Source of the DNA: a virus
Lineage: Duplodnaviria > Heunggongvirae > Uroviricota > Caudoviricetes
Virus record (IMG/VR): IMGVR_UViG_3300010280_000022
Strand: one strand, 5' to 3'
DNA length: 27,380 bases
Below the pieces are notes generated by a model, which made no database searches, was not told the origin of the DNA, and was given only the letters and a program-made list of their open reading frames with translations. The position numbers were made by a program, and so were the translations under genes. Every line of letters begins with the position of its first letter. Positions within the stretch are counted from its first letter, which is position 1. This document shows, in pieces, positions 1 to 25,231 of this stretch.

Positions 1-2420
1 CATATATTATTTGCCGACCTATGTACATACGTATTTACTATCGGCTTAGATGAAGATGAACCCTTAGCTCTCGAACCATCGATAAGACAGTCAGACACTG
101 ACATAAATCCTGAAACAAGGTTGTTACTCACATCCCAATCTATGGCCATTTTGTCAAAATAAACACTGCCAAGCATATATGTTTTTCCACCAGAATAGCC
201 TACAAACCTACGTAATACACCACCATAATGCTTGATGTAACTCCTAGTCATTCCTGATGTGATATTCATATATACAATATCCATATTGCACTCAATTCCG
301 TAAAGGCAAGATGCATATTCTGATATGTGTCCAACATAACATACAACTTTACATCCAGTTGATTCAGATGGAGTCAATTTAATTACAGGAATATCTCTTG
401 TAGATGCATCATGATATGAAATTGCCAACTCAAATCTTGCGTCTTTACCATTAAAAGTGCTACCAGTAAAATCTATCAACGACGGCATTTTAAAGTCACG
501 CAAAGGTGATGGCTGTGTTTTAAAGTTATTTTTAAATGATAAAATATTGAGTGTTACCTCAGAAGGCCAGTATATATTCGTCTGTACAATTATATTCTTC
601 GGAAGATGTAAAGTGCGCGGCTGGACAGGGTTCCCGGACGCGATAACATTGTCTGAACGACACAAAATCATATCCACCAAACCGGATGAACCCTCTGGAA
701 TACGAACGGATCCCCCACGGACTATGAAATCACCTTTATGTTCACCGTAATCCGTACGTACTCCAAACGGCCCTATGTGAGAATTGATGATCTGTGTTGC
801 CTCGTCGAACGCCCCAGTACCAACCAAGACGCCGCCAGGTATCCGACAATTATCAACAAGAATCTTTGAGCACCCATAGTGCATGTGAAAGCTATCAATA
901 TTACTGTCTCTCACAACTACATCCCTGCAATAGTTGCCGTCAATAGACCTCCACCCCTTACCCACTTCGCAGCCGATAAAAGTATGTTTAAGGGTGTACT
1001 CCATAGCTACGGTATAACGAGAATTATTATCCGTCTGCGTAATACCCGCACTCGTTAATCTCCAGTTAACTCCGTAGGTGGTAGAGCTACCAAAAATATT
1101 AGAATCTGTAGCTGTCATCCCCATGTCATTAAAGTAAACAACCTCAACATCAACTAAAGAACGTTGGATATCAAAAGCATAGCGTGAAAATTGACCAGTG
1201 AAACGCGGCAATACAATTTTATTACGCTTAGTTGGTAGCTTAAATAACGTACAAGTTACGGGGTCGTTGTAAGTATTTTTAAGACTGTAAGCCAATTCCC
1301 CTGGCTTAGTCATAAAGTTCACTTCACCTTTATATCTTGGGCTGAATACACCACCAATCAACCTATAGAGATCAACCTCTGTTGGACTTATTATTTTGAC
1401 GAGCGAATTACCCCACCCTGCTAAATCCTCAACACAAGAAAAAACTGAGGTTAACTCGTTCAATGGGTATGTTGATATATTAACTTCCTTTATATAATTA
1501 TCATCATCCCTTTCATCTTTATACACAACCTTTCCGTTTGTTAAGTGGAAAGTACAATTACTCAAATCAAAATCACCATATAGATATGTTTCTTTATCTA
1601 TGGTGAAAGTTAGTGGCGCGCTTGAGTATATTTTTATTGGTGTATTTTTATACTTATAAAATATAGCATTAAGCTGATCACTATTCCGCTCACCGTCTAG
1701 TGCGCTTATATCATATATATATAATCTGTTTTCTAATCCACCAATTAACTTATACCCATCAGGTTTAGCTAATTCAATTAGAACGTCTGAGGCAGATCCA
1801 GATGGTGGTAATACGACAAATGGATTACCATCATTATCAAAAGCAACCATCTTGTTTGCTCTTTCAATAGCATCAGGTAAGGAAGGTATTGATTCAGGAA
1901 CACGAAGAGTTTTGCTTAGATTGCTACCAGCAAGCGTATCCACGTAATTTTTTGTTGCCGCATCCTGCGGAAATCTGGGATCTCTCAGGTTACGAATATA
2001 ATTGTTCAAAGCATCATAATAATTAGCAATAAATGATGGTTTACGCAGAGCCAACCTGAACCAACTTCTAACCTGCTGTATCAGCATCGTCAGTTTATCG
2101 AATGCGTCTTCATGCACCTCAGCGAAGAACTTACCCTGGTTGCGCAGATCGGTATCCTGCGTAACCGGTAGCTCTCTTGATATAGAAATCTGATAACCGT
2201 TAACCAACGCCTTCGACAGAATTACATTGCCGCCGTTATACCCTCCCGCACCAGTGACTATGTAATCAGTATCAAGAATCAGCTCTGTGATGTTCTCGTT
2301 CAGGTCAACAACCTGCACTACTAAATCAGATTTCTGGAAAATCCTGAAGGTATAAGGGAATGTCGTTGTAACACCGTTACCGGTGTATTCGTTGTGGTCA
2401 ACTTCGGTTGAGACCGTCAT
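1..2420 (-). CDS. Tailspike / tail fibre protein, 3'-truncated by window edge (at least 806 aa); T7 gp17-like N-terminal anchor domain plus AT-rich divergent C-terminal region
   Basis: Minus frame open from ATG at 2420 (GGAG 8 nt upstream) to position 1; absent from ORF track because no stop lies in the window. N-terminus MTVSTEVDHNEYTGNGVTTTFPYTFRIF..LVVQVVDL..DTDYIV fits the conserved podovirus tail-fibre N-terminal pattern. Confidence 0.8.
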   Translation of the reverse strand, partial: MTVSTEVDHNEYTGNGVTTTFPYTFRIFQKSDLVVQVVDLNENITELILDTDYIVTGAGGYNGGNVILSKALVNGYQISISRELPVTQDTDLRNQGKFFAEVHEDAFDKLTMLIQQVRSWFRLALRKPSFIANYYDALNNYIRNLRDPRFPQDAATKNYVDTLAGSNLSKTLRVPESIPSLPDAIERANKMVAFDNDGNPFVVLPPSGSASDVLIELAKPDGYKLIGGLENRLYIYDISALDGERNSDQLNAIFYKYKNTPIKIYSSAPLTFTIDKETYLYGDFDLSNCTFHLTNGKVVYKDERDDDNYIKEVNISTYPLNELTSVFSCVEDLAGWGNSLVKIISPTEVDLYRLIGGVFSPRYKGEVNFMTKPGELAYSLKNTYNDPVTCTLFKLPTKRNKIVLPRFTGQFSRYAFDIQRSLVDVEVVYFNDMGMTATDSNIFGSSTTYGVNWRLTSAGITQTDNNSRYTVAMEYTLKHTFIGCEVGKGWRSIDGNYCRDVVVRDSNIDSFHMHYGCSKILVDNCRIPGGVLVGTGAFDEATQIINSHIGPFGVRTDYGEHKGDFIVRGGSVRIPEGSSGLVDMILCRSDNVIASGNPVQPRTLHLPKNIIVQTNIYWPSEVTLNILSFKNNFKTQPSPLRDFKMPSLIDFTGSTFNGKDARFELAISYHDASTRDIPVIKLTPSESTGCKVVCYVGHISEYASCLYGIECNMDIVYMNITSGMTRSYIKHYGGVLRRFVGYSGGKTYMLGSVYFDKMAIDWDVSNNLVSGFMSVSDCLIDGSRAKGSSSSKPIVNTYVHRSANNI

Positions 2421-2524
2421 GTTAAATCTCCAGATAGTCGCAGCACCCGTTGCGCCGCATATCCGGTTATTCTATTACCTGAAAAACCATATATGGATAG
2501 ACAACCCATAAATACGAACAGATA

Positions 2525-2539
2525 TTACCTTTCAGGTGA
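2525..2539 (+). promoter_or_regulatory. Dyad motif site A: TTACC-TTTCA-GGTGA
   Basis: One of five intergenic copies of ATTACC-N5-GGTRA; lies between tailspike start and the LexA-box gene. Confidence 0.45.
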
Positions 2540-2578
2540 TTCGCAAAACGTGCTGGATAGCAAATAAATTATTTGATA

Positions 2579-2594
2579 CTGTATATTTATACAG
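2579..2594 (+). promoter_or_regulatory. LexA (SOS) box CTGTATATTTATACAG
   Basis: Exact CTGT-N8-ACAG with AT-rich core, flanks taCTGT..ACAGtt; preceded by TTGATA (2573-2578); 22 nt upstream of ATG at 2616. Confidence 0.75.
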
Positions 2595-2615
2595 TTATTG
2601 CATGGAGAAGATAAG

Positions 2616-2873
2616 ATGCAGCAGTATCACTATCCACTGGAAGACGGATTTACCGAAAGGATTCACACGCCGGGAGGCGTCAGATCACTGGTGGAGGGAT
2701 CGCACTTGATGAAATTACTCCGGGATCTCGATAAGGATGGATTTAATGTCGATGGCCCACTTGCCGAACTGACTGCACTGATTAACTACGTCACCAGCTC
2801 ACAGATGTCTATGCGGGATCTGCAAACACATCTCGACTATTGTGCCGAACAATTACGAAAACAAACCAGATAA
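2616..2873 (+). CDS. Small protein (85 aa) paralogous to the C-terminal domain of the adjacent antirepressor; candidate SOS-inducible antirepressor or modulator
   Basis: ORF-track frame 2598..2873 begins at TTG; in-frame ATG at 2616 has GGAG 8 nt upstream. Motifs P.GV..L.E.S.LM.LL..L..DG..V.G..AELT and LRD.QTH..Y are shared with residues ~150-231 of the 3189..3884 protein. Confidence 0.7.
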   Translation: MQQYHYPLEDGFTERIHTPGGVRSLVEGSHLMKLLRDLDKDGFNVDGPLAELTALINYVTSSQMSMRDLQTHLDYCAEQLRKQTR

Positions 2874-2904
2874 GGTTTGCAATTACCAAGTGGAGTGCTT
2901 ATAT

Positions 2905-2919
2905 TTACCTTTGCGGTAA
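2905..2919 (+). promoter_or_regulatory. Dyad motif site E: TTACC-TTTGC-GGTAA, nested in a longer inverted repeat
   Basis: Perfect TTACC/GGTAA arms; flanked by AAGTGGAGTGCT (2888-2899) and AGCACTCCTCTT (2928-2939), inverted with one mismatch. Confidence 0.45.
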
Positions 2920-3010
2920 ATTTACATAGCACTCCTCTTGTGCCATAGTAATCGGGCACTGGCAAAATCCAGTGCCGGGATTGGCGTCCCGGATTACTAA
3001 AAGGCGCATT

Positions 3011-3031
3011 CACCGCGCAAGCGGTTTTTTT
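3011..3031 (+). terminator. Rho-independent terminator between the small LexA-controlled gene and the antirepressor gene
   Basis: Stem ACCGC/GCGGT with GCAA loop followed by six T. Confidence 0.6.
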
Positions 3032-3188
3032 ATGCGTATAGCACGGCCACATTCGTATTATGGTGGGCTGTGTGGGGGCACCGAAAGGTGCGCCGGGTCC
3101 TTTTAGCCGGTTACGCCAACCCTGCACAGTTCACCACCAACCGATTGGCGTCGGTAGTGGTGATTAACCAGACTAAAAGGTAACCACT

Positions 3189-3884
3189 ATGACAGCTACA
3201 AAAAGCACGTCCATTTTTTCTTTCGAATCCCAAGCCGATATACGGGTAATCGTCATTAATGGTGAGCCATGGTTTATCGCTTCAGATGTTTGTCGGGCTA
3301 TAGGCATAGCAAACCATCGAGATGCTGTTCGAAAACTTGATGATGATGAGAAGGGCGTCGCTTCAACCGACACCCCTGGCGGTGAGCAAGAATCGATCAT
3401 CATCTCCGAGTCAGGCCTCTACACACTGATCCTCCGCTGCCGCGATGCGGTGACACCAGGCACTATCCCATACCGCTTTCGTAAATGGGTTACAGGTGAG
3501 GTTCTTCCTCAGATCCGCCGCACCGGAAGTTACATTAAAAACTCGCTCACGCAGGAAGAACGCATAAAGATGGTTGCCGACCAGGTAGCCAACGCCACGG
3601 CGTCAGCAGTGATGCAGGCGATGAAGATAGAGAACAAAACCTACAGTGCCCCACTGAAGCCCGGCTACCGCAGCCTGATTCATTCGCCGTCTGGTGTTCT
3701 CGGCCTGACGGAGAACTCACTGCTGATGAATTTGCTGAACCAGTTACAGGAAGACGGGCACGATGTATCGGGCGCGGCGGCGGAACTGACCACCATGTTC
3801 TGCTACATCGTCGGTGTGAGCAAATGCCTGCGTGATATCCAGACTCACGCGGAGTACATCAACGACAAAGCAGGATTCTTCTGA
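3189..3884 (+). CDS. Bro-N family phage antirepressor (231 aa)
   Basis: N-terminal IRVIVINGEPWFIASDVCRAIGI...LDDDEKGV is the Bro-N/antirepressor signature; AAAAGG upstream of ATG; long structured leader. Confidence 0.8.
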   Translation: MTATKSTSIFSFESQADIRVIVINGEPWFIASDVCRAIGIANHRDAVRKLDDDEKGVASTDTPGGEQESIIISESGLYTLILRCRDAVTPGTIPYRFRKWVTGEVLPQIRRTGSYIKNSLTQEERIKMVADQVANATASAVMQAMKIENKTYSAPLKPGYRSLIHSPSGVLGLTENSLLMNLLNQLQEDGHDVSGAAAELTTMFCYIVGVSKCLRDIQTHAEYINDKAGFF

Positions 3885-3958
3885 CAGAACGGCGGCACAG
3901 GGATGTGCCTTTAAATAATTCTGTACAGATTGCAGACTGGGGGGTGAATAGAGTACTA

Positions 3959-3973
3959 TTACCTTACGGGTGA
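3959..3973 (+). promoter_or_regulatory. Dyad motif site C: TTACC-TTACG-GGTGA
   Basis: Same ATTACCTT left arm as other sites; sits ~40 nt upstream of the mini-ORF and terminator that precede the membrane-protein gene. Confidence 0.4.
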
Positions 3974-4063
3974 TCCATAGCGATTAGGCACCGATACAGG
4001 AGGAGCCCACATGAGAAAATTTGACGAGTACGAAGGCGTTTAACATTCGGATAGTTTAATGAC

Positions 4064-4084
4064 GGGGCCATTAGGCCCCGTTTT
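4064..4084 (+). terminator. Terminator/attenuator hairpin directly upstream of the membrane-protein gene
   Basis: GGGGCC-ATTA-GGCCCC then GTTTT; ends 18 nt before GTG at 4103. Confidence 0.5.
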
Positions 4085-4102
4085 CATGTCTGGAGACAGT
4101 TT

Positions 4103-4642
4103 GTGTTAAGTGAAGAAATGCAATTTGCCATGGCTGTGGCTCAAATCGTAAGTGCAGTCGCGGTTTCGCTTGGCTTGTTCATAGCTATCGCTACTATTAT
4201 TTATAATGTAAATACAGCGAGAAAAGTACACACTTCAGTATTCCTTGGTGAAAGCAGGTTTGATGTAGATTATAAGAAAGGCCTATCTACTATGCGCCGC
4301 ATTCACGAATCGAACAAATCATTCCGCTCTTATATGTATCCAAGCAATGGGCAGGCTGATCTTACGGATGAAGAAAAGATAGAGAAGAGAGAAATAATTT
4401 ACTGTCTAGGTTTCTACGAACGCATGGCTGTGAGCGTGAAGCGGAAAACTTATGATGAGACCATGATTAAGGAAGTATTTTACAGCTCCGTTGTAAATAA
4501 CTATCAGATTGCGCTACCTCTTATACAAGCTATTAGAGAAAAAGAAAACATAAACACATATTTTAAAGAATATGAATGGTTGGCCACACGATGGAAGGAT
4601 TGTCCATTGAAAGATAAATCCCCGTGGTACAAGTTTTGGTAA
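4103..4642 (+). CDS. AT-rich inner-membrane protein (179 aa; one N-terminal TM helix); candidate superinfection-exclusion/defence moron
   Basis: GTG start with GGAG 6 nt upstream (alternative ATG at 4118); hydrophobic segment FAMAVAQIVSAVAVSLGLFIAIATIIY; AT-rich codon usage unlike the flanking structural genes; strong terminator follows. Confidence 0.7.
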   Translation: MLSEEMQFAMAVAQIVSAVAVSLGLFIAIATIIYNVNTARKVHTSVFLGESRFDVDYKKGLSTMRRIHESNKSFRSYMYPSNGQADLTDEEKIEKREIIYCLGFYERMAVSVKRKTYDETMIKEVFYSSVVNNYQIALPLIQAIREKENINTYFKEYEWLATRWKDCPLKDKSPWYKFW

Positions 4643-4663: not shown

Positions 4664-4735
4664 GTGGACGAAACAAAAGTCAGTGCTACACTCATTGACG
4701 CCACATTGAGGTGGCTTATAGATGGAAATTTCACA

Positions 4736-4897
4736 ATGAAAAAAGCATTTGCTGCACTGTTCGTTTTGTTGTCTCTGGTAGCTTCAACTCAGGCCTTTGC
4801 CGGTCGTTGTCAGCACGACAGCGATACTGCCGCTGACGGCTCCCGCTGCGGTGGGCGTTCTGCGGATTCCCGCCCGGGCGGCGGTGGCATTCGTTAA
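4736..4897 (+). CDS. Small secreted peptide (53 aa; signal peptide plus ~31-aa Gly/Arg/Asp-rich mature part with 2 Cys)
   Basis: MKKAFAALFVLLSLVASTQAFA is a typical Sec signal with AXA site; upstream TTGACG (4695-4700), 16-bp spacer, TATAGA. ORF-track N-terminal extension from 4664 rejected. Confidence 0.5.
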   Translation: MKKAFAALFVLLSLVASTQAFAGRCQHDSDTAADGSRCGGRSADSRPGGGGIR

Positions 4898-4933: not shown

Positions 4934-5494
4934 CTACATTGATATATGATTCATAAAGTAGCTTAAAGATTTACTTCCCAGAAAAGAAATTTCTTTTCCT
5001 GGATATGTCGCAATAATTGAGCATGACTTATCCCCGTTAGAGGTAACAAATCCTGAATAACCTACTTGTTCTTTACCATTTTGTTGCTTGGCTAAAAAGT
5101 AGAGGTAGCTTATCTTTTTGCCCTCTGGGTAAAACTCTGCCAAACCAGTATCGGTGATTGAATATTTTATTCTCCCGCCTTGAGTAACGTTTTCCATCTC
5201 AAGTTTAGCTATGTCTTTTCTGTTGTATTCAGCATTGATTTTCCTTTCGAAATCAATGTTGTTTTCAAATGAGTAGGAAGCAACAGTCTGAATAGATGGG
5301 AACACGTTTATCTGGATGCCTCCACAGTCGGCACAGGTATAAAGGTATGAATCAGATGGAATCCCCATAAAAGAAAACTGAGTTACCTTAAATTTATCGC
5401 TATCTCCAAAGTATTGAAGTTCGCATTTAACATTTTGCCCTGCAAAAGAAAATGCAGACATCAATATTGAAACAAAAAATATAATTGCCTTCAT
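4934..5494 (-). CDS. AT-rich secreted/periplasmic protein (186 aa), last gene of the late operon; function unknown
   Basis: Signal peptide MKAIIFFVSILMSAFSFA; four Cys; ATG 3 nt after the stop of the upstream 850-aa gene; composition much more AT-rich than the core genes. Confidence 0.7.
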   Translation of the reverse strand: MKAIIFFVSILMSAFSFAGQNVKCELQYFGDSDKFKVTQFSFMGIPSDSYLYTCADCGGIQINVFPSIQTVASYSFENNIDFERKINAEYNRKDIAKLEMENVTQGGRIKYSITDTGLAEFYPEGKKISYLYFLAKQQNGKEQVGYSGFVTSNGDKSCSIIATYPGKEISFLGSKSLSYFMNHISM

Positions 5495-5496
5495 TA

Positions 5497-8049
5497 TTAT
5501 TTACCTAGCATGAACTGCGATGGTGGGATCAGAAAGCCGTTACCCTGCTCACGCTCAACACGGCGCTGATAACGCTCAAGAGAGCCTGGGTCAAGGGCAT
5601 CTTGTATCCGGTTCAATATTAAACCATTCATCGCCGTACGAAGCCAGAACACGTTGAGGAATGGCGTATTGTCAAGTGCCGTGCGATACCAGTCACCCAA
5701 ATCTGCATCCCCTCTCGTGGTCTGCTGGAGCAGCGTGATAATGCTGTCAGCGTTCGATGCTGCTGGCCCCATTAGCGACGTAACCGGCCCGGCCCCCATG
5801 CGGTTGACCTCGCCAAACATGAAGTCACCCAAGATGCCAAGACCGCCCCCCTGAGATGCGGCTGCGAGAAACGTCTTGGCATCTGCCGGGCGTGGTGTTT
5901 GCCCTTTCAGCATGAGTTTTGACTGCATGGAGATATAACCAAACATAGTCGCCCAGACAAAGAGGTTTGCAGCACCAAGGAAAGCCCCCTTCCCGTTACG
6001 TAGCAGCGCATTCGTCAGCGATCCGGTTTTCGACTCACCAAGCCCAGCAGGAATATAACCACGCCCGAATACTTCGCGTCCTAGTACGTTCTGCATGAAG
6101 CTTGCAGTGAACGATTTGTACTGACCAGCGAATCGTATTGCTTCCCCAGCCACCGTTCCTGGCACCGTGCCCATCTTCATAAACGCCTGCGTGCGATCGC
6201 CAGGCTCTGACATGGCGATATTCAGGCGGTCAAGGATGTAGCCGCGCAACTGCCCTTCCAATTGATCGCGTGCGTCAGCGATAGCGCGCTGCGTTGGTTT
6301 GATCCCCTTACTCTCTACATAACCGGCAATCACTTCGTCAGGCACGCCGCGGATGCCGCTGGTCGTCATGAACTTACGACCTTCGCTATCGGCCATGTCC
6401 ATGTTGCGAAAAATTTCCCACTCACGTTCGCCAATACCGTGCAGATCCAGCACGCGTCGCAGGTCTTCCGGTAGCCGCGCATGAGACTGGTCAGCATTCT
6501 TTGCAAGCCAGTTGGTTATCATCATGGCGTTGCTGTTGCGACCGCTCTCGGTCCAGAAGTTCATGAGGTTGTACTTAAAGAAAAGCTGCTGCGCGCGACC
6601 AAGCTTTCCATTCAGCGTGTCATCACCAGATATGCGCCGGATGATTTCCTGCGTCATGGAGTCGGAATAAACTCCGATAGAGGAAAGGATCTCTTTCTGC
6701 TCCGCGCTGTTGTAACGCGTGAAGCGGCCTCTCATAGCACCAAGCAACGCCTGCATAAAATTCTGCCCTTGGTAGCGCATCTCGGTAGCGGCGATAGGCA
6801 CGTCGTTAAACGATGAGATTACCGCGCCACCAAGTTGGCTCATACGCAACCAGCCGCGTACAGCCGCCGACGCATTGGCCCAGCCTACGCTGCCAGGAAT
6901 ATTTAGCGAGCCGTCAACCTGCGGCATTACGGTACGGTTAATGCGACGCACCTTCGTCATGTAGTCAGCCAACGCTGCCGGTCTTCCGGATTTGCTGATA
7001 TCTTCAGCAATGGCGTCCGTCAGGTACTTAAACATGTTCTGTGGGTTAGTGCCCAGTACGCGCATCATGCCCGTTGTGCGGGCAGCGCTGTTTAAGCCAC
7101 CAAACAGCGCTTCTCGCAGGCTGCCGGTGCCGAATTGCTGGTTGTACTCGTGCCAAGAGATACCATCTTTGAAGTGCAAAATTCGCTCTTGGCTGGCGCG
7201 TTTAGCTGCGTTCGCCGATCCCTTAAAGCCATTCATCCAATCGGGCTTTTCAGATGTAAGATGCACGCCGGAAGCCAGCCCGTTATAAATGTTACGCATG
7301 AACTGCTCGCGGTCAGCCACGCCGTCAAAAGTGCGCTCATCAAGGCGCGGGAGAATAGCATTTCGCCATGCATCATAACCTGCGGCGCGGATCTTCATGA
7401 TGTCGTGTGACTGGCGCACTATATAGCCCGGCTCTTTGCGTATCCATGCCCCGGCGCGGTTCTCATCAATGCGCGCAGTTTCCTGCCATTTCATGATGAT
7501 TTGTGCAGCGCTTACGGATTGCTTTGTCATACCGTCAGTTGACTGCCCGCGCCCTATGCGCCACATTGCATCGGCAATTTCCCGGTCATTGCTGCCGCTG
7601 GCGATGAATTGCACCAGCCCGGCACGGTCAAAATCGTAGTTGATACCGGAATGATACTTGCCGCGCAGTTGCGCCACCTCCGAAGATACCGACCGGCGGG
7701 CGCCGGTACGCGCATCGTTGCGGCCAACCAGCATTGCTTCAAGCCCGATATCCGGGCGGTCTTTCCAGATAGTACGAAGCTCTCTAAGTCGTTGTGCGGC
7801 AATACGGGCGTTGATTGCCTTATTGCGAGCCTCAATCTGTTTTGCCAGCATATCGGCATTGCTCAGTTCTTCCGCTGCGCGCATCGCGGCCTCTTCCAGA
7901 GACAGCGCCTCATTGGTCGCCAGAATTCGCCTAGTGGTGTCGTTCATGTCACGCACCAGCGACTCCATCTCATCGGAAGAAAGCTCGCGACCAGCGGCAG
8001 CATTTACACTGCGCTCGCACTGCGTCAAAAATTCGTTTGCTGCCATCAC
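5497..8049 (-). CDS. Internal virion/ejection protein (850 aa; T7 gp16-like position)
   Basis: Long ORF overlapping start/stop with neighbours, in the block between tail-tube genes and tailspike. Confidence 0.7.
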   Translation of the reverse strand: MMAANEFLTQCERSVNAAAGRELSSDEMESLVRDMNDTTRRILATNEALSLEEAAMRAAEELSNADMLAKQIEARNKAINARIAAQRLRELRTIWKDRPDIGLEAMLVGRNDARTGARRSVSSEVAQLRGKYHSGINYDFDRAGLVQFIASGSNDREIADAMWRIGRGQSTDGMTKQSVSAAQIIMKWQETARIDENRAGAWIRKEPGYIVRQSHDIMKIRAAGYDAWRNAILPRLDERTFDGVADREQFMRNIYNGLASGVHLTSEKPDWMNGFKGSANAAKRASQERILHFKDGISWHEYNQQFGTGSLREALFGGLNSAARTTGMMRVLGTNPQNMFKYLTDAIAEDISKSGRPAALADYMTKVRRINRTVMPQVDGSLNIPGSVGWANASAAVRGWLRMSQLGGAVISSFNDVPIAATEMRYQGQNFMQALLGAMRGRFTRYNSAEQKEILSSIGVYSDSMTQEIIRRISGDDTLNGKLGRAQQLFFKYNLMNFWTESGRNSNAMMITNWLAKNADQSHARLPEDLRRVLDLHGIGEREWEIFRNMDMADSEGRKFMTTSGIRGVPDEVIAGYVESKGIKPTQRAIADARDQLEGQLRGYILDRLNIAMSEPGDRTQAFMKMGTVPGTVAGEAIRFAGQYKSFTASFMQNVLGREVFGRGYIPAGLGESKTGSLTNALLRNGKGAFLGAANLFVWATMFGYISMQSKLMLKGQTPRPADAKTFLAAASQGGGLGILGDFMFGEVNRMGAGPVTSLMGPAASNADSIITLLQQTTRGDADLGDWYRTALDNTPFLNVFWLRTAMNGLILNRIQDALDPGSLERYQRRVEREQGNGFLIPPSQFMLGK

Positions 8050-21672: not shown

Positions 21673-21687
21673 TTACCTTTCAGGTAA
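21673..21687 (+). promoter_or_regulatory. Dyad motif site B: TTACC-TTTCA-GGTAA (perfect inverted repeat)
   Basis: Perfect palindrome 17 bp downstream of a TTGACA hexamer (21651-21656); heads the tRNA/moron insertion. Confidence 0.5.
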
Positions 21688-22289: not shown

Positions 22290-22304
22290 TTACCTTAAAG
22301 GTAT
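22290..22304 (+). promoter_or_regulatory. Dyad motif site D: TTACC-TTAAA-GGTAT, abutting TATAAT and the moron ATG
   Basis: ATTACCTTAAAGGTATAATcATG; right arm overlaps an AAGG Shine-Dalgarno-like element 7 nt from ATG at 22309. Confidence 0.45.
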
Positions 22305-24599: not shown

Positions 24600-25192
24600 T
24601 GATTACCATCCTGACGTTCTTTGAGTCGCTTCCTGGCTGCTGCTATGCGATCAGCAATTGTCACATTCACATTAACATCCAGACGTTCTTTGAACGCGTT
24701 GACATCAACATGCTTACCAATCAGCTCAAGGTTCTTCACCTTGTCAGGCCATTTAATTTTTTTGAGGATTGTCTCTATCGAATCCTCGTTCATGTTCATG
24801 ATGGTCGATGACAGATCAAAGCCACTAAGCGTAGTGCGCCAGATTTTCGGCCACTCACGGATTGGTTTAAGGCTCCCATCGTCGTTGAGGATGTCGATCA
24901 CGTCCATCTGGTCGATCTCCACCAGGCGCATGAGAACGTAATCAGCACTGACGCGCATTCGTTTGTTGCGCTCCTCCATCAACTCGGCAATCCGTTTTTG
25001 AATGCGTTCATCGCGCATCATGACACTGGCTTTAACTGCCGCTGTATTTGGGGAGAATCCTGCGTTAATCGCTGCCTGAGTCTGGTTTTCAGGCGTTTTG
25101 ATGTATGACTGGCAATAAGCCTCCTGCATTGCTGTGAGCGGCTTAAATTGCGTTGATTTGCGTTTATAGGTTTTAGGTTCAGCAGGCATCAT
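24596..25192 (-). CDS. terS: Terminase small subunit (198 aa)
   Basis: ...LELIGKHVDVNAFKE... is a terminase small-subunit type signature; start moved to ATG at 25192 because the first 26 residues of the ORF-track call are a Thr/Ile-rich read-through. Confidence 0.65.
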   Translation of the reverse strand: MMPAEPKTYKRKSTQFKPLTAMQEAYCQSYIKTPENQTQAAINAGFSPNTAAVKASVMMRDERIQKRIAELMEERNKRMRVSADYVLMRLVEIDQMDVIDILNDDGSLKPIREWPKIWRTTLSGFDLSSTIMNMNEDSIETILKKIKWPDKVKNLELIGKHVDVNAFKERLDVNVNVTIADRIAAARKRLKERQDGNQ

Positions 25193-25201
25193 AACCACCG
25201 T

Positions 25202-25231
25202 GGTAATAGTTACCGTTGTGGTAATAGTACC
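25202..25231 (-). repeat. Tandem palindromic repeats GGTAATAGT(T)ACC x2 in the terS leader
   Basis: Copies at 25202-25214 and 25220-25231, 10-40 nt upstream of the terS start. Confidence 0.5.

Follow-up and report, generated by a model that had tools for sequence, protein, structure and literature searches.

The window analysed here, which is the whole 27,380-nt stretch of Caudoviricetes DNA in IMG/VR record IMGVR_UViG_3300010280_000022 and along the full length of which all positions are counted, carries a locus at which a small gene, ant, is followed by a gene for a larger protein (the fusion) that joins an N-terminal Bro-N domain to a C-terminal, Ant-like domain. An RNA cassette lies between the two genes, and the locus also holds a LexA box and copies of an operator-like palindrome (Table 1). 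The region shows ~97% DNA identity to epsilon15-like podoviruses of the genus Uetakevirus (phiV10, TL-2011b and vB_EcoP_ZX5, hereafter ZX5), while prophage matches to at least part of 2400-4100 occur in roughly one fifth of complete Escherichia coli genomes. Divergent from ant is the tailspike gene, a landmark for the place that the ant locus keeps in Uetakevirus; genes for a tailspike or a tail fibre lie at the equivalent spot in phiV10, SPC32H and Tyrion.

Table 1. Features of the ant locus and its surroundings, with all palindrome sites of the window
Feature	Position	Strand	Remarks
Tailspike gene	1..2421	-	ATG at 2421; open frame to position 1, running off the window start
Palindrome TTACC-N5-GGTGA	2525..2539	.	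tailspike/ant intergenic; 1 mismatch; perfect in SPC32H, Tyrion and ZX5
LexA (SOS) box CTGTATATTTATACAG	2579..2594	+	perfect CTGT-N8-ACAG, 21 nt 5' of the ant ATG
ant	2616..2873	+	stand-alone 85-aa antirepressor (product 2616-2870), SPC32H Ant orthologue
Spacer between ant and the Bro-N gene	between 2873 and 3189		315 nt
Perfect palindrome TTACCTTTGCGGTAA	2905..2919	.	abuts the -35 hexamer of the IsrK promoter
Promoter-like site TTTACA-17-CATAGT	2921..2949	+	extended -10 TG; transcription start placed at ~2956
IsrK-like small RNA (sRNA)	2956..3031	+	Rfam RF01394, 77.9 bits (gathering score 50)
Target box b1 GATTGGCGTC	2979-2988	+	within the IsrK-like sRNA
Target box a1 ACTAAAAGG	2996-3004	+	within the IsrK-like sRNA
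Intrinsic terminator of the IsrK-like sRNA	3012-3031	+	stem-loop, then T-run
C4-type antisense RNA	3056..3141	+	Rfam RF01695, full length, 77.7 bits (gathering score 45)
35-aa open reading frame (ORF) overlapping the C4 RNA	3060..3167	+	ends 21 nt before the fusion ATG; positional equivalent of Gifsy-1 orf45
C4 loop a' CCTTTTAG	3099-3106	+	
C4 loop b' ACGCCAA	3113-3119	+	
Target box b2 GATTGGCGTC	3143-3152	+	second copy
Target box a2 ACTAAAAGG	3172-3180	+	second copy; overlaps the Bro-N gene Shine-Dalgarno, 9 nt before the ATG at 3189
Bro-N/Ant-domain fusion antirepressor	3189..3884	+	231 aa (product 3189-3881)
Bro-N domain of the fusion	3237-3509		aa 17-107; followed by a helical linker
Ant-like domain of the fusion	3636-3866		aa 150-226
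Palindrome with 1 mismatch	3959..3973	.	downstream of the Bro-N gene; perfect in ZX5 at the equivalent place
DUF4760 gene	4103-4642	+	downstream of the Bro-N gene; then virion genes on the minus strand
All window palindrome sites	2525-2539, 2905-2919, 3959-3973, 5118-5132, 21673-21687, 22290-22304, 25192-25206, 25210-25224		

To judge from its sequence, the small protein is the known and complete antirepressor of epsilon15-like phages, and the conserved, ancestral component of the locus. Its residues 2-84 align with residues 3-85 of PDB 5D50 chain E ('anti-repressor protein') at 87% identity (E 1.4e-46), tblastn found the same identity in two Salmonella phages, SPC32H and SPC32N, the ant genes of which are annotated as such, and phrog_450 covers the protein over its full length (E 7e-48). 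The start codon is correctly placed at the ATG of 2616: homologues across the Enterobacteriaceae are 85-86 aa long and open M-Q/S-Q/R-Q-Y-H, and a Shine-Dalgarno sequence, GGAGAAG, lies 6 nt upstream. RefSeq, Pfam and NCBIfam gave the protein no family name; the Ant domain is without a model in either Pfam or NCBIfam, NCBIfam has none for the fusion as a whole, and a Pfam match of Ant to DUF724 was rejected as noise (17 bits against a cut-off of 38). In SPC32H, ant is under the control of LexA, and Ant is made after LexA self-cleavage (Kim and Ryu, 2013, as relayed in PMC7380047). The protein inhibits the phage repressor, Rep, by protein-protein contact (PMC7380047 and PMC9638917), and acts as a tetramer, with two Rep dimers bound and the Rep tetramer broken apart (Kim et al., 2016, as summarized in PMC9638917).

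The LexA box of the window abuts a -35-like hexamer, TTGATA, at 2573-2578, and is aligned and conserved in SPC32H, phiV10 and Tyrion; the full 20-mer, TACTGTATATTTATACAGTT, agrees at 18 of 20 positions with the LexA consensus as it stands in general knowledge. An initial annotation of this DNA, made by a model from the letters alone, had placed the small gene under LexA, and the perfect, conserved box bears this out; the ant promoter is thus likely to be LexA-controlled. A gene that is called 'hypothetical' is, in consequence of these assignments, to be re-annotated as the primary SOS antirepressor.

Conservation of ant was assessed in relatives. Among 5426 complete E. coli genomes, 529 carry the gene, almost all of them at full length, and comparison with SPC32H gave dS ~1.5 and dN ~0.11 (dN/dS ~0.07). 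In SPC32H it occupies the same position, adjoining the tailspike gene, and is followed directly by convergent virion genes; neither a Bro-N gene nor an Rfam RNA match was found after ant at that locus. A tblastn search with Ant returned a single match in epsilon15 (the locus of which is known here from that search alone) and one in each of the Salmonella phage members, as against two or three in most E. coli phages, in Tyrion and in three of the four Klebsiella phage records. The initial annotation had treated the small gene as a derivative of a 'full-length' antirepressor, and had listed, among findings that would count against its reading, an inactivated fragment in related prophages. Neither the derivation nor such inactivation is supported: the gene stands alone in SPC32H, is intact and under strong constraint in E. 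coli, and it is the fusion that varies. The option of a 'regulated effector domain', also raised in that annotation, was essentially right, in that the small protein is a complete antirepressor. We note that Ant is far better conserved than its target, with 87% identity between E. coli and Salmonella phages as compared with 42% (E 2e-53) between the Rep proteins of SPC32H and ZX5, a phage near-identical to that of the window.

The C-terminal part of the fusion is a paralogue of Ant. Residues 2-75 of Ant align without gaps with residues 150-223 of the larger protein (BLASTP, 32/74 identities, 43%, E 1e-16), and the shared motifs quoted in the initial annotation fall inside this alignment. The profile phrog_450, which covers Ant, also matches the fused domain (E 4e-36), as does 5d50_E (E 1e-13); the fused copy is 36-43% identical to Ant proteins, and many invariant positions are common to the two. 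In the predicted structure the fused domain shares the fold of Ant. The Bro-N assignment of the N-terminal domain was equally secure (PF02498, E 2e-21, 76.7 bits against a gathering cut-off of 25.6), and the model of this domain resembles the Dachshund/SKI and Mbp1 DNA-binding folds. Bro-N was the only Pfam match in the fusion at E values up to 0.1, which means that KilAC (PF03374) was not found there. Because the small protein is a known, complete antirepressor, the domain that it shares with the fusion would be the repressor-binding unit, and the fused copy is predicted to bind Rep as well.

Both ant and the fused domain are under purifying selection. Comparison of the fused domain with that of Tyrion gave dS 0.68 and dN 0.15 (dN/dS ~0.23); within E. 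coli, 4-7.5 synonymous changes were found as against 0-4.5 non-synonymous ones, and six synonymous and no non-synonymous differences separate the window from the sibling locus L010. The 3' segment that encodes the Ant domain is present in 470 E. coli genomes, and the full-length fusion of the window in 97.

Functional data exist for a protein 99.6% identical to the fusion, ORF4 of ZX5: when this was overexpressed, the lysogen count dropped from 1e9 per mL to 1e6 per mL, and the repressor was transcribed 75% less (Li et al., 2022, PMC9782041). This result fits an antirepressor role, and bears on the dominant-negative option raised in the initial annotation; as elaborated here, mixed tetramers of Ant and the fusion, formed through the shared domain, would damp or tune antirepression. 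Mixed oligomers are conceivable in view of the shared fold, the many invariant positions and the tetrameric state reported for SPC32H Ant (PMC9638917). Nevertheless, we regard this proposal as very improbable: the small protein is a proven, active antirepressor in SPC32H, a phage that has no fusion gene, both genes are under purifying selection, and the fusion, when overexpressed, pushed ZX5 towards lysis, which is the opposite of the effect expected.

Where the Ant domain is part of a larger protein, it is found behind heads of several kinds. When 1.84 billion representative proteins were searched with a profile, only 61 members of the Ant-domain family were recovered, most of which are stand-alone proteins of 80-95 aa, while a few hold the domain at the C-terminus of a larger protein with a Bro-N, AntA, Phage_pRha or ORF6N domain at its N-terminus. 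The C-terminal 83 residues of the window's fusion recur, unchanged or with one residue different, in four E. coli prophages that were sampled, where they are preceded by one or other of two Bro-N variants, by AntA or by ORF6N; in other proteins Rha heads an Ant domain that has diverged further. The fusion is situated just downstream of stand-alone ant in the sampled E. coli prophage loci, and adjoins ant in every locus inspected, including that of a distant metagenomic relative (L012), in which an Ant of 57% identity is accompanied at the same locus by a Rha/Ant-domain fusion in inverted orientation. Phages of other types have other C-termini behind a homologous RNA cassette: an ORF6N domain is joined to an unrelated C-terminus in Gifsy-1 and to P22_AR_C in the Stx phage PA28. 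An Ant domain was looked for in both of these proteins and ruled out, being absent from Gifsy-1 AnrP and replaced by P22_AR_C in the PA28 antirepressor; the C-terminal module therefore varies between these phage types. The N-terminal head, of DNA-binding fold type, is interchangeable, and the Bro-N fusion is a variable, mosaic, acquired add-on to the locus. That the C-terminus is constant while heads are swapped, and is replaced in Gifsy-1 and PA28, suggests that the C-terminal module is the effector and is specific for the repressor.

Between the two genes the initial annotation had placed a terminator. The stem-loop and T-run are indeed there, but they belong to an IsrK-like sRNA that is part of an IsrK/C4 switch which had been missed. 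From the promoter region to the start codon, the window matches Gifsy-1, over the isrK-orf45 region that precedes anrP, at 81% identity, and the promoter-like site aligns with the Gifsy-1 isrK promoter region. In addition, RF03163 (c4-a1b1) reached 45.1 bits at 2943-2995, just below its gathering score of 46.7. In the immI scheme of P1 and P7, loops a' and b' of the C4 RNA face target boxes a1/b1 and a2/b2, and C4 represses translation. Both the a and the b boxes of the window are complementary to C4 loop sequences, and comparison of six loci revealed covariation, with four a-box and three b-box variants that match changes in the C4 loops; the target copies match the loop variants at both sites, apart from two partial exceptions at a1. 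IsrK and C4 lie immediately 5' of the fusion in every fusion-bearing locus examined. Since the same type of cassette precedes unrelated antirepressors, the RNA switch is portable between phages. In Gifsy-1, read-through of the IsrK terminator yields an inactive mRNA that is activated in trans by short IsrK, and orf45 is translationally coupled to anrP (PMC4825925).

Further observations concern the cassette. Many Stx1/Stx2-converting phages (PA28 and about 100 other records) share the IsrK/C4 segment (window 2962-3164) at ~81% identity, and in PA28 (L011, 2501-3401) it precedes the ORF6N/P22_AR_C antirepressor in the nin region. The 35-aa ORF gave no Pfam or NCBIfam match. Its counterpart in ZX5 (L005, 1779-1892) is annotated 'ash family protein'; this ORF, which overlaps the RNA gene, is probably either a leader peptide like orf45 or icd, or an RNA gene annotated in error. 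Obligatory read-through from ant into the cassette was considered and set aside as a general arrangement, because in locus L007 a convergent gene lies between them and in L012 the fusion is inverted.

Upstream of the cassette promoter lies one of a set of palindromes that is greatly over-represented in these phages. With up to one mismatch, TTACC-N5-GGTAA occurs at eight sites in the window as compared with 0.43 expected, an excess of about 20-fold; ZX5 has 14 sites against 0.70 expected, and SPC32H has 10 perfect ones. Nearly all sites are intergenic, as are all ten perfect sites of ZX5, in which one perfect and one one-mismatch site lie in the rep/cro-side region and two perfect sites just downstream of rep. 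Counted from the IsrK 5' end, the cassette palindrome begins 51 nt upstream in the window and 48-51 nt upstream in six related loci, its stem being kept across relatives and its loop variable; the isrK promoter of Gifsy-1 has no TTACC-N5-GGTAA palindrome. A stable hairpin at 2887-2940 (z -3.4) was considered as a terminator and rejected for want of a U-run; it is read as the operator palindrome with its flanks. The palindrome is probably the operator of the phage repressor or of another phage-wide regulator and, as it overlaps the cassette promoter, the cassette is probably also controlled by the phage's own regulator, most likely Rep.

We consider it probable that the locus encodes two functional antirepressors, which carry the same small helical repressor-binding domain and are subject to different controls. 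By orthology with SPC32H, DNA damage would lead to LexA cleavage and to synthesis of Ant, and the Ant tetramer would bind the C-terminal domains of Rep and pull Rep off its operators, as demonstrated for the SPC32H orthologue. The acquired cassette would supply a promoter of its own, an IsrK-like sRNA with its terminator, a C4-type antisense RNA and the fusion gene. Pairing of the C4 loops is predicted at two boxes, and since one of these overlies the ribosome-binding site of the fusion gene, translation should be held off in a lysogen, as in P1 immI, and IsrK-type transcripts could release it, as in Gifsy-1; the direction of this control is argued by analogy with those two systems. With the cassette under a phage regulator, the fusion would not be the primary SOS sensor but a follow-up amplifier once Rep has been removed, or would serve anti-immunity during infection.

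Several observations weigh against this interpretation. A Foldseek search against the PDB returned no match to 5D50, and Rep is encoded outside the window, its presence being deduced from relatives. The upstream a1 box of Tyrion and of L010 matches the C4 loop only in part. IsrK activates translation in Gifsy-1 whereas C4 represses it in P1, so that the net control in this locus may be of either sign. Some regulator other than Rep may be what binds the palindrome, whose centre, near -44 relative to the promoter, falls where activators also bind. The ZX5 experiment employed a GST-tagged, overexpressed protein and a crude read-out. Finally, phiV10 (L001, 3787-4466), a viable temperate phage, carries a 16-bp frameshifting deletion within the Ant-like domain that splits the Bro-N gene into ORFs of 194 aa and 29 aa, and protein P0146 has lost the first half of the Ant-like domain through an internal deletion; the fusion is therefore dispensable.

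The defects in phiV10 and P0146 could also indicate that the fusion is a mosaic passenger, decaying or selfish, that plays no part in the switch, in which case its similarity to Ant would be the relic of a past duplication or recombination. The absence of the fusion from the Salmonella members fits such a passenger, as does its location in a slot rich in accessory genes (DUF4760, YafO toxin, DUF2335 and a P22-type immI module). Nevertheless, we judge this account improbable, since the 3' Ant-domain segment occurs in 470 E. coli genomes and ant in 529, purifying selection acts on the domain, the operator-like palindrome is conserved at the fusion's promoter, the RNA switch covaries, and ZX5 ORF4 has an experimental phenotype. 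The passenger and dominant-negative accounts are thus both poorly supported.

A third alternative gives the fusion a different target. The diverged Ant domain, 43% identical to Ant, might act as a weapon against the Rep proteins of heteroimmune epsilon15-like prophages, being expressed on infection before C4 accumulates. The antirepressors of P1 and P22 are well established to behave in this manner. The fusion gene is annotated in phiV10 as a 'putative anti-immunity protein', the strong divergence of Rep within the family (42% identity) implies several immunity types, the multiple C4/box specificity types resemble P1/P7 heteroimmunity, and antirepressors that act in trans between prophages have been documented (PMC3121763). 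On the other hand, overexpression of ZX5 ORF4 affected the lysogeny and repressor transcription of ZX5 itself, and the C-terminal domain is near-invariant in E. coli prophages, unlike a surface engaged in an arms race. A role in cross-immunity is plausible, but is not favoured by the ZX5 result, and we think it unlikely to be the explanation of the locus.

If the locus does hold two functional antirepressors under separate controls, these might be linked in a two-stage circuit, which we put forward tentatively. Removal of Rep by Ant would derepress the cassette promoter, and the resulting IsrK-type transcripts, possibly including transcripts that run on from ant as far as the IsrK terminator, would titrate C4, permitting translation of a DNA-tethered Ant-domain protein that locks in lysis or acts on co-resident prophages. 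The C4/box types would then constitute a second, RNA-based immunity specificity (immI) in a podovirus, and the Bro-N, AntA, Rha and ORF6N heads might be generic carriers of a repressor-specific C-terminal warhead. This view of the heads, if true, would provide a general rule for the interpretation of 'antirepressor' annotations. Thousands of phage genes are so labelled because of a Bro-N, Rha, AntA or ORF6N domain, and their working part is rarely known.

The slot 3' of the fusion holds variable cargo. In the window it is occupied by the gene for the DUF4760 protein, which has a predicted N-terminal hydrophobic segment, and in sibling loci (L008, L009 and L010) by a gene for a YafO-family toxin or a DUF2335 protein. 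In E. coli 13E0780 (L009), the same slot contains, at 5671-7407, a P22-type immI module composed of sar RNA, an Arc-family gene and a P22-like antirepressor, which amounts to a third antirepressor system at one locus and marks the slot as a hotspot for such modules. Beyond the DUF4760 gene, the window has a 77-aa ORF with an internal signal-peptide-like start (MKKAFAALFVLLSLVASTQAFA...) at 4664-4897 and, on the minus strand at 4934-5494, a 186-aa ORF with a signal-peptide-like N-terminus, the sole match of which was phrog_11983 (function not known).

One phage thus appears to wire the same effector domain to two inputs, SOS via LexA and a P1-like antisense-RNA switch, an arrangement relevant to the induction decisions of prophages present in about 10% of sequenced E. 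coli. The small gene was already known, and its pairing with a fused copy of the domain is of modest novelty; for this phage group, neither the pairing of ant with the fused domain nor the shuffling of heads nor an immI-like RNA control was found described in the searchable literature. In SPC32H, the source of the Ant structure (PDB 5D50), ant occurs only as a stand-alone gene, without RNA cassette or fusion, whereas here a fused copy is carried on a Bro-N domain. ZX5 ORF4 is encoded at the same locus as the fusion; in that study it was treated as the sole antirepressor, and the small Ant gene, LexA and the RNA elements of the locus were not mentioned (Li et al., 2022, PMC9782041).

The control elements find their closest parallels in two other systems. 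Like Gifsy-1 isrK-orf45-anrP (Hershko-Shalev et al., 2016, PMC4825925), in which read-through of the terminator is required for antirepressor expression, the window has an IsrK terminator in a closely similar RNA region with an antirepressor gene downstream. Gifsy-1 differs in that AnrP is an ORF6N protein without an Ant-like domain, the promoter is without the palindrome and the a-box sequence is a different one. Likeness to P1/P7 immI extends to a C4-family RNA situated between two copies of its two target boxes, to downstream boxes at the ribosome-binding site of a frame leading into the antirepressor, to what is here probably a phage operator at the promoter (in P1, C1 controls P51a) and to the existence of several specificity types. 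In contrast to P1 and P7, the phage here is a podovirus with an unrelated repressor, the effector domain is unrelated to P1 Ant, only the 35-aa ORF lies over C4 in place of an icd homologue, and a terminated, IsrK-type sRNA precedes C4. The fusion shares with the classical Bro-N, KilA-N, Rha, AntA and ORF6N antirepressors a swappable N-domain of DNA-binding type joined to a C-terminal module, and the same shuffling of the two; but while the C-terminus of those proteins is typically KilAC (PF03374) or P22_AR_C, here it is the SPC32H Ant domain, for which the complex with its repressor has been solved.

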